Shown piece after piece: positions 8,267-8,998 of a stretch of 8,998 bases of DNA (positions are counted from its first letter, which is position 1; each line of letters begins with the position of its first letter). This DNA is from a virus (Duplodnaviria > Heunggongvirae > Uroviricota > Caudoviricetes), in the IMG/VR virus record IMGVR_UViG_2657244940_000009, positions 1 to 8,998 of that record. One strand, 5' to 3'. Below the pieces are notes generated by a model. It searched no databases. It worked only from the letters and a program-made list of their open reading frames with translations, and was not told the DNA's origin. The position numbers were made by a program, and so were the translations under genes.

Positions 8267-8458
8267 TTAAGACAAACGTGGGTAAATACCCGGACCTATC
8301 GGCAAGCCAACAAGATACCACGCCAGCAACATCAGCAGCCATACCACCGAAAAGATTAATACTAACAAAAAGTAAGTACCAGGTTTAGCGTCTGGTTTGT
8401 CGAAGTATTTAAGCATAAAGCGATTTTTTGATTTTTCTGCCTGAAGAAATGAGGGCAA
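8267..8458 (-). pseudogene. Short 3' coding remnant (63 codons, TTG start in track) ending 10 nt upstream of ogt; probable C-terminal fragment of a truncated transporter gene (abgT in K-12 gene order)
   Basis: Hydrophobic helix-like peptide (FLLVLIFSVVWLLMLLAWYLVGL); no ATG start with Shine-Dalgarno; the frame is closed by TGA at 8476..8474 and all three minus frames carry stops just upstream. The abgT assignment rests on remembered K-12 gene order, not sequence comparison. Confidence 0.35.
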
Positions 8459-8755
8459 GCCATCAAATTCCAGTCAGCGAAATTTTACCGTAGGCTATCC
8501 GTTATTTGATTCTGTGGCGTGATAGCCGCCAGACACCACTGATCTCGTCACTCATTCCCCAATCCCGGCGAGAATGTGGTTATTTACAGAGCTAAAAAAT
8601 GAATAAAAAAATAGAGCCTGTCGACATCCGCCAGACTCTACAGTACACACAGCAGTGCATCCTCGTCTTAAATCCGGCCTGGGGTCCTGGTGACCGGTGA
8701 CAGTGTTATAACGGTTTTACCCATCCGTTGCCAATTTTCTTCAGTGACAGATTTC

Positions 8756-8998
8756 GGTGATGCTGCCAACTTACTGATTTAGTGTATGATGGTGTTTTTG
8801 AGGTGCTCCAGTGGCTTCTGTTTCTATCAGCTGTCCCTCCTGTTCAGCTACTGACGGGGTGGTGCGTAACGGCAAAAGCACCGCCGGACATCAGCGCTAT
8901 CTCTGCTCTCACTGCCGTAAAACATGGCAACTGCAGTTCACTTACACCGCTTCTCAACCTGGTACGCACCAGAAAATCATTGATATGGCCATGAATGG
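8756..8998 (+). mobile_element. IS1 insertion sequence, left end (partial; continues beyond the right edge)
   Basis: Left terminal inverted repeat GGTGATGCTGCCAACTTACTGAT at 8756, followed by the insA coding sequence; matches canonical IS1 as I recall it. Confidence 0.95.
8811..8998 (+). CDS. insA: IS1 InsA (transposition regulator), 5' part, GTG start, open to the window edge
   Basis: Manual translation from GTG at 8811: [63 protein letters not shown]. The track ORF 8782..8994 is a different frame. Confidence 0.9.

Follow-up and report, generated by a model that had tools for sequence, protein, structure and literature searches.

Results

The window, meaning the whole 8,998-nucleotide stretch of DNA analysed, is the entire draft contig CDRA01000216.1 of assembly GCA_000947375.1. 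Its end beyond the prophage contains, in order of increasing coordinate, an intact ogt gene for the 171-residue O6-alkylguanine-DNA alkyltransferase (7741..8256, minus strand; from the list of open reading frames and the RefSeq annotation of matching loci), a 10-nt spacer between the abgT stop and the ogt start (8257..8266, minus strand), a 3′ remnant of abgT (8267..8402, minus strand), a 3′ remnant of the LysR-family gene abgR (8403..8595, plus strand), the gene of the McaS/IsrA small RNA, mcaS (8603..8698, minus strand), the mcaS core promoter and upstream region (8699..8755, minus strand) and the left end of an IS1 element (8756..8998, plus strand). All of these components are already known and are annotated in many RefSeq genomes.

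The remainder of the window is a lambdoid prophage (13-7660) encoding a Q antiterminator, NinG, a phosphatase, a KilAC antirepressor, a SASA esterase and a holin. Downstream of the Q antiterminator gene lie tRNA-Gly(tcc) and tRNA-Asn(gtt) (4372-4446 and 4531-4605); the closest related prophage, NMBU-W12E19, carries genes for Gly, Thr and Asn there, which suggests that the window has either lost the Thr gene or kept it only in degraded form. The prophage meets the fnr-ogt spacer at an abnormal junction (7659-7661) with only 2 bp (TC) shared, where a P22AR C-terminal-domain antirepressor gene is cut down to 130 of its 224 codons. In sister assemblies that carry this IS1, ogt and fnr are in their native arrangement. 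The prophage-ogt junction is either an isolate-specific rearrangement that parted ogt from fnr or the mark of a chimeric contig. Position 3802 is A in the window and N in the public contig record (L008), the sole difference over the 8,998 bases.

Compared with K-12 and with B2-type strains alike, the Ogt protein of the window carries the substitutions E36K and E49D, and the two are likewise absent from the four other alleles compared. All the ogt differences between the window and strains 95-3322 and SCU-176 are non-synonymous. The exact window protein was found in only 16 contigs of the public collection, and those shown come from assemblies or runs with neighbouring accession numbers.

A minus-strand frame ahead of ogt is open for 68 codons plus a stop (8267..8473), with an in-frame stop at 8474-8476 upstream. 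The first-pass annotation had reported a short open frame at this place, separated from ogt by the gap that is found between abgT and ogt in K-12, and this description was accurate: the gap of 10 nt is also that of K-12 (locus L003, abgT from 1724 and ogt up to 1713). Alignment with the K-12 abgRABT-ogt region, proposed in the same annotation as a check, gave two blocks of homology by blastn. The first, 7660-8400, comprises ogt and the abgT 3′ end (95% identity), and the second, 8470-8755, comprises the 3′ end of abgR and the sequence that follows, mcaS included (84% identity, unusually divergent for E. coli backbone DNA). Gene order, the 10-nt gap, the ogt core promoter and the position of mcaS downstream of abgR are as in K-12, whereas 5,043 bp of the K-12 locus (L003 1870-6912, from the breakpoint calculation) are missing from the window. 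Both abgB and abgA are gone entirely, as is the divergent promoter region; abgT has lost 1,381 bp of its 5′ part and abgR 695 bp of its 5′ part, or three quarters of this divergent regulator gene. Hence the earlier proposal that most of the gene upstream of ogt and the rest of its operon had been lost is borne out.

The deletion junction lies at 8402..8403 (plus or minus 2 bp), as placed by an alignment that took in less eroded alleles of the scar, and joins abgT at about codon 461 to abgR at about codon 232. At this point abgT sequence ending ...GCGTCTGGTTTGT is fused to abgR sequence, which in K-12 reads CAGTCTGG..., with at most 1-2 bases shared. The alternative that K-12 gained the DNA by insertion was rejected; decayed remnants of both abgT and abgR border the junction, and it is for this reason, not from a rooted phylogeny, that we read the event as a deletion.

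On the ogt side, blastn to K-12, the alignments, BLASTP, Pfam and the breakpoint calculation agree that the abgT stretch is the last 146 bp of the 1,527-bp K-12 gene, less a secondary in-frame 12-bp deletion at 8356/8357. RefSeq annotates it as a partial pseudogene. The first start codon in the frame is a TTG, which gives an ORF of 63 codons (8267..8458, minus strand), and frame analysis together with BLASTP showed this ORF to be a chimera. About 45 C-terminal codons come from abgT and about 18 N-terminal codons are antisense to the abgR remnant; the N-terminal part (MPSFLQAEKSKNRF...) is not AbgT and is the antisense reading of the DNA past the junction. The C-terminal 45-50 residues have 76% identity to residues 457-508 of K-12 AbgT (BLASTP E = 2e-21), and residues 22-60 match positions 458-500 of the 502 in the Pfam profile PF03806, ABG_transport (E = 3e-6). 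The score of 26.2 bits is just below the 27-bit whole-protein cut-off, as expected since the ORF is a fragment. As judged from these alignments, none of the abgT and ABG_transport matches is by chance. Members of the AbgT transporter family are polytopic proteins of about 500 residues, and by that measure the stretch is a remnant and not a member gene.

On the far side of the junction, blastn, alignments, translation and RefSeq identify the last 214 bp of K-12 abgR, interrupted by in-frame stops and shortened by a secondary deletion of 19 bp near 8460. An intact frame with the helix-turn-helix and substrate-binding domains of a LysR-type regulator is not present. The translated remnant gave no Pfam match, and its homology is at the DNA level only (84%).

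The small RNA gene that follows is full length and intact. The Rfam model RF00115 matched the window at 112.8 bits (gathering score 42; E = 7.7e-22) over all of its 96 positions (1-96), and mcaS sits between the abgR 3′ end and the next gene, as in known McaS/IsrA loci. Upstream of it a -10 element TATAAC (8710..8705) and a -35 element TTGGCA (8734..8729) are predicted, and this promoter region is conserved in K-12, B2-type strains and Escherichia ruysiae. The DNA from 8477 to 8755 is thus not the non-coding-looking sequence of the first-pass annotation; it is native DNA made up of the abgR 3′ remnant, the intact mcaS gene and the mcaS promoter. That annotation had named two findings that would overturn its reading, namely that 8477-8755 is native and that the 63-codon ORF is an intact small gene; the former is what we found, and the ORF is an abgT/abgR chimera. 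The McaS alleles compared (window 8603-8698; L003 7133-7228; L021 7430-7525) differ almost only in stem-loop 1, at positions 6-20. The window, E. ruysiae and B2-type strains share one version of this stem-loop and K-12 has another.

The sequence from 8756 to 8998 has 99.6% identity over 245 nt to the complete 768-bp IS1A copy in SCU-176, as found by blastn. Its left inverted repeat (8756-8778, 23 bp) is identical to the left end of the complete 768-bp IS1 in SCU-176 and four other genomes, and an inward promoter-like site lies at 8763-8790. A GTG at 8811 is the start codon of insA, of which 62 residues are encoded before the contig ends; they match Pfam Zn_ribbon_InsA (77 bits, against a cut-off of 26.1) and, at 38.8 bits, the initial 20 positions of the HTH_Tnp_IS1 profile. 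With the terminal repeat and the InsA match, the IS1 end that had been called at 8756 is confirmed. The window copy shares the left repeat, the inward promoter-like site and the InsA zinc-ribbon N-terminus with known IS1A-like elements, but it comprises the first 243 of 768 bp, and insB, the frameshift site, the right repeat and any target duplication lie beyond the contig.

In IS1-free relatives the sequence after 8755 is ACGAAAATATAAGTTAAATCA, leading into the 3′ end of an AraC-family gene. The IS1 lies 57 bp upstream of the mcaS start and 13 bp past the stop codon of that gene, and since this stop is only 13 bp away the element is in a short intergenic spacer. The IS1 insA gene reads away from mcaS, and the mcaS core promoter is intact. 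The 8755/8756 junction recurs base for base in sister contigs (L006, L007, L009, L011-L013), among them Logan reassemblies of raw runs, and none of the 5,426 complete E. coli genomes has it; the insertion is therefore both real and clone-specific. GCA_000941535.1 and GCA_001373195.1 are sisters of the window assembly. One-piece matches across the junction in ET846 and 203740 were rejected as chance extensions of alignments into unrelated AT-rich flanks. A homology search with the neighbouring AraC-family protein gave a representative with T27I, on a single unrelated contig. All of the clone contigs end inside IS1.

We then examined how widely the scar is distributed. Positions 8257-8755 occur in one piece and free of IS1 in 1,169 of the 5,426 complete E. 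coli genomes (about 21.5%), known B2 strains such as F11 among them. The abgAB genes are present in 4,202 of these genomes and absent from 1,224, and comparison of the last figure with the 1,169 scar genomes indicates that the scar represents ~95% of the abg-negative genomes. Strain 95-3322, which lacks the IS1, is colinear with the window over 7660-8755 at 99.5% identity, and its 8257-8755 stretch is 100% identical. The identical junction was seen in 95-3322, SCU-176, VTB96929v, GPEC657, ECMA0423 and E. ruysiae. In the E. ruysiae reference genome the junction-spanning pattern matches, and ogt, junction, mcaS and the AraC-family gene are colinear with the window at 89-91% identity (89% overall).

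The scar alleles fall into three nested states. Scars of about 530 bp with neither small deletion occur in VTB96929v, GPEC657 and ECMA0423; the 12-bp deletion alone is found in a Logan contig and in E. ruysiae; and both the 12-bp and the 19-bp deletions are present in the window and 95-3322. The 12-bp deletion is thus common to the B2-type sublineage of the window and to E. ruysiae, and absent from VTB96929v, GPEC657 and ECMA0423, a pattern that points either to slippage, more than once, between short AAG repeats or to recombination across lineages.

In the B2-type genomes 95-3322, SCU-176 and F11, the abgT′/′abgR pseudogene pair beside ogt (NCBI PGAP) has the same junction, both secondary deletions and the same ogt-side neighbours as the window. 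RefSeq lists the pair as a partial 'hypothetical protein' or 'AbgT family transporter' and a partial 'LysR family transcriptional regulator'. B2-type scar genomes run straight on into the AraC-family regulator gene, whereas the window has IS1 13 bp past the stop of that gene. Scar-type genomes carry this AraC-family regulator gene together with HlyD-type and DHA2 MFS efflux genes between mcaS and smrA (L002 6513-9700; L004 5543-8935), and K-12 is without them. The efflux genes are pseudogenes (partial or frameshifted) in 95-3322 and SCU-176, and HlyD is intact in VTB96929v and GPEC657. A literature search found no published account of an abg deletion in B2 strains.

Further IS1 copies have inserted near mcaS in other strains. 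Of five copies that lie no more than a few hundred bp from mcaS, four are simple insertions flanked by duplications of 8-9 bp: inside the AraC gene of SCU-176 (CAGTGTCTC duplicated), at the mcaS terminator of GPEC657 (GAGCTAAAA duplicated), and in the mcaS-smrA spacer of strain 361 (TAATCATGC duplicated) and of strain C1 (TCGTGAATG duplicated). The fifth, the first copy of CAVP773, joins a truncated abgT to the first bases of mcaS without a duplication and marks an IS1-mediated deletion. This strain (L016 575-3417) has independently lost the abgT 5′ part, abgB, abgA, abgR and mcaS and keeps 1,158 bp of abgT; a second IS1 copy upstream of smrA is a simple insertion (GAATTTTG duplicated, 8 bp). 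CAVP773 resembles the window in the locus, the IS1 and a truncated abgT next to ogt. In CAVP773, however, IS1 itself is the junction and mcaS is lost, whereas in the window native DNA separates IS1 from the junction and mcaS is intact.

To place the ogt promoter on the abgT remnant we used published positions for K-12. In the promoter passages of Ruanto et al. 2020 (PMC7419079), K-12 ogt has the -10 hexamer TATCTT and NarL sites centred at -44.5 and -77.5, a figure of the promoter spans -105 to +1, and a NarL site at -67.5 was active. We mapped the -10 and NarL positions given there on the sequence and placed the ogt +1 seven bases past TGGTATCTT in K-12; on this numbering the two 16-mers assigned as 7-2-7-like sites are centred at -44.5 and -77.5, precisely as published, and the deletion edge is at -107 of K-12, just beyond the -105 to +1 region of that figure. 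By the same mapping the predicted ogt promoter of the window lies within the abgT remnant (8305..8378, minus strand). The extended -10 element TGgTATCTT (TGGTATCTT) is present, with its hexamer at 8317..8312 and a transcript start that would be at about 8305. A NarL II-like 16-mer (8342-8357, -52..-37) is centred at -44.5 as mapped in K-12, with 2 substitutions relative to K-12. A NarL I-like 16-mer (8363-8378), also with 2 substitutions, would be centred at -65.5 and not at -77.5, because the 12-bp deletion, at the outer edge of NarL II, brings it closer. No mention of -65.5 was found in the promoter passages of Ruanto et al. (PMC7419079) cited above. Since these promoter elements and the deletion edge map there, the abgT DNA that is retained would correspond to nearly the complete ogt promoter plus a 49-nt leader.

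Upstream of the mcaS promoter is a CRP-like palindrome, TTTCGT/GAAATCTGTCACTGAA, which IS1 splits; it is the best CRP-like palindrome of the region under a crude consensus scoring of our own. Of its 22 bp, 16 are left at 8740-8755 and the remainder is displaced by IS1. The palindrome is conserved in K-12, B2-type strains and E. ruysiae. Its centre is at -52.5 relative to mcaS, which is not a canonical activating position. In contrast to known McaS/IsrA loci (RF00115), the region upstream of -57 is replaced by IS1 in the window. A simple promoter and terminator scan found only the inward promoter-like site of IS1; as it missed the ogt and mcaS promoters and the McaS terminator, the scan was dropped as evidence.

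Discussion

Collectively our data very probably reflect three unrelated events laid one over the other, an old abg deletion, erosion of the scar and a late, clone-specific IS1 insertion, with IS1 not the maker of the deletion. At the outset an illegitimate-recombination deletion of 5,043 bp would have left only the final 146 bp of abgT and the final 214 bp of abgR, joined to each other, and removed the genes for p-aminobenzoyl-glutamate uptake and hydrolysis. The scar would then have eroded through the 12-bp and 19-bp deletions and stop codons, while the McaS gene and promoter downstream of abgR were kept. Much later, and in one clone, IS1 would have inserted 57 bp upstream of the mcaS start. 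The identical junction, free of IS1, in 1,169 genomes and in E. ruysiae means that the scar long predates the IS1, and judged by this distribution the abg deletion is very old relative to the window strain.

The first-pass annotation had tied the deletion to IS1, and its reading can be put in its strongest form as a single event, in which transposition of IS1 or an adjacent deletion in the window strain took the abgT 5′ part, abgB and abgA and left the stub and the IS1 together. The short distance between the IS1 and the scar speaks for it, as does CAVP773, where an IS1 that lacks a target duplication links truncated abgT directly to the 5′ end of mcaS at the same locus. However, the deletion has its far edge inside abgR (8402/8403), the 353 bp from there to the IS1 end are native DNA of abgR, mcaS and the mcaS promoter, and the IS1-free genomes with the same junction (1,169 complete genomes and E. 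ruysiae) refute it; we give this reading a nearly negligible probability, and this part of the annotation fails. Just as little can be said for the view, almost certainly wrong, that a chimeric draft contig produced the IS1 junction as an artefact of assembly. The window is a complete 8,998-bp short-read contig, and its other junction, between prophage and ogt at 7660, is unique to the window assembly, but the IS1 junction is found in at least six other, independently assembled sister contigs. A more serious competitor concerns the right side of the element, and holds that IS1 at 8756 marks one side of another deletion or inversion, specific to the clone, by which the AraC-family, HlyD and MFS genes that follow mcaS in related strains were lost or moved elsewhere. 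Every clone contig ends within IS1 with the right end out of view, one of the five other IS1 copies near mcaS has such a deletion, and the window contig also has an abnormal junction on the other side of ogt. Against this, four of those five copies and the second copy of CAVP773 have clean 8-9 bp duplications, and breaks inside IS1 are normal in short-read assemblies and so uninformative either way. We consider a second rearrangement unlikely, and a simple insertion to be the most likely state of the window IS1, by analogy with the other copies at this locus. A simple insertion with a 9-bp target duplication, expected to be ACAGATTTC, would put ACAGATTTCACGAAAATATAAG/ACGAAAATATAAGTTAAATCATTTGTC, the AraC 3′ flank, beyond the IS1 right end, which would read ...AAGTTGGAGTCATTACC and then ACAGATTTCACGAAAATATAAGTTAAATCATTTGTC.

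The 63-codon ORF is probably not a gene. With the abg promoter deleted and the ogt transcript start (about 8305) inside the ORF, its expression is unlikely. One might still propose that it is a retained, functional small membrane protein translationally linked to ogt; the frame is open in all the scar alleles examined, the 12-bp deletion keeps it, and the hydrophobic C-terminal segment is well conserved. Conservation of the ORF is accounted for by the overlapping ogt promoter, though, and beyond the lost promoter and the internal transcript start, the N-terminal third, which begins at a TTG, reads abgR in antisense and varies between alleles, and RefSeq calls the stretch a pseudogene. A functional protein here is thus very improbable. 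The abgT stub is best read as the ogt promoter, and it plausibly survives because it is the NarL-dependent promoter of ogt, as mapped from the passages cited, and hence regulatory and not coding DNA. The ogt promoter of many B2-type strains, in which a NarL site is shifted by 12 bp, is a natural variant of this well-studied promoter.

McaS has been reported to be activated by cAMP-CRP (review, PMC3634460), and from its sequence and position we infer that the palindrome may be the CRP site of mcaS. We hypothesize that IS1, which cuts the palindrome, could affect mcaS regulation. A bolder proposal is that the clone has fixed the IS1 at -57 of mcaS as an adaptive change in regulation, in which the cut CRP-like operator uncouples McaS, a switch of curli, flagella and PGA, from nutrient status; we regard this as speculative and quite unlikely. 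If it were true, the recurrence of independent IS1 insertions so close to mcaS in other lineages, a few hundred bp away at most, would point to selection on the small RNA locus and not to a mere preference for AT-rich targets.

Since the loss of abg is a trait of the lineage and not a strain-specific IS1 event, no special phenotype can be attributed to this isolate on that account, and the significance of the locus goes little beyond its correct annotation. That annotation now includes a functional-looking small RNA gene, mcaS, in DNA that had been taken as non-coding. Should IS1 alter the regulation of mcaS, the window would provide a small, testable example of IS-mediated rewiring of a small RNA that acts on biofilm and motility.
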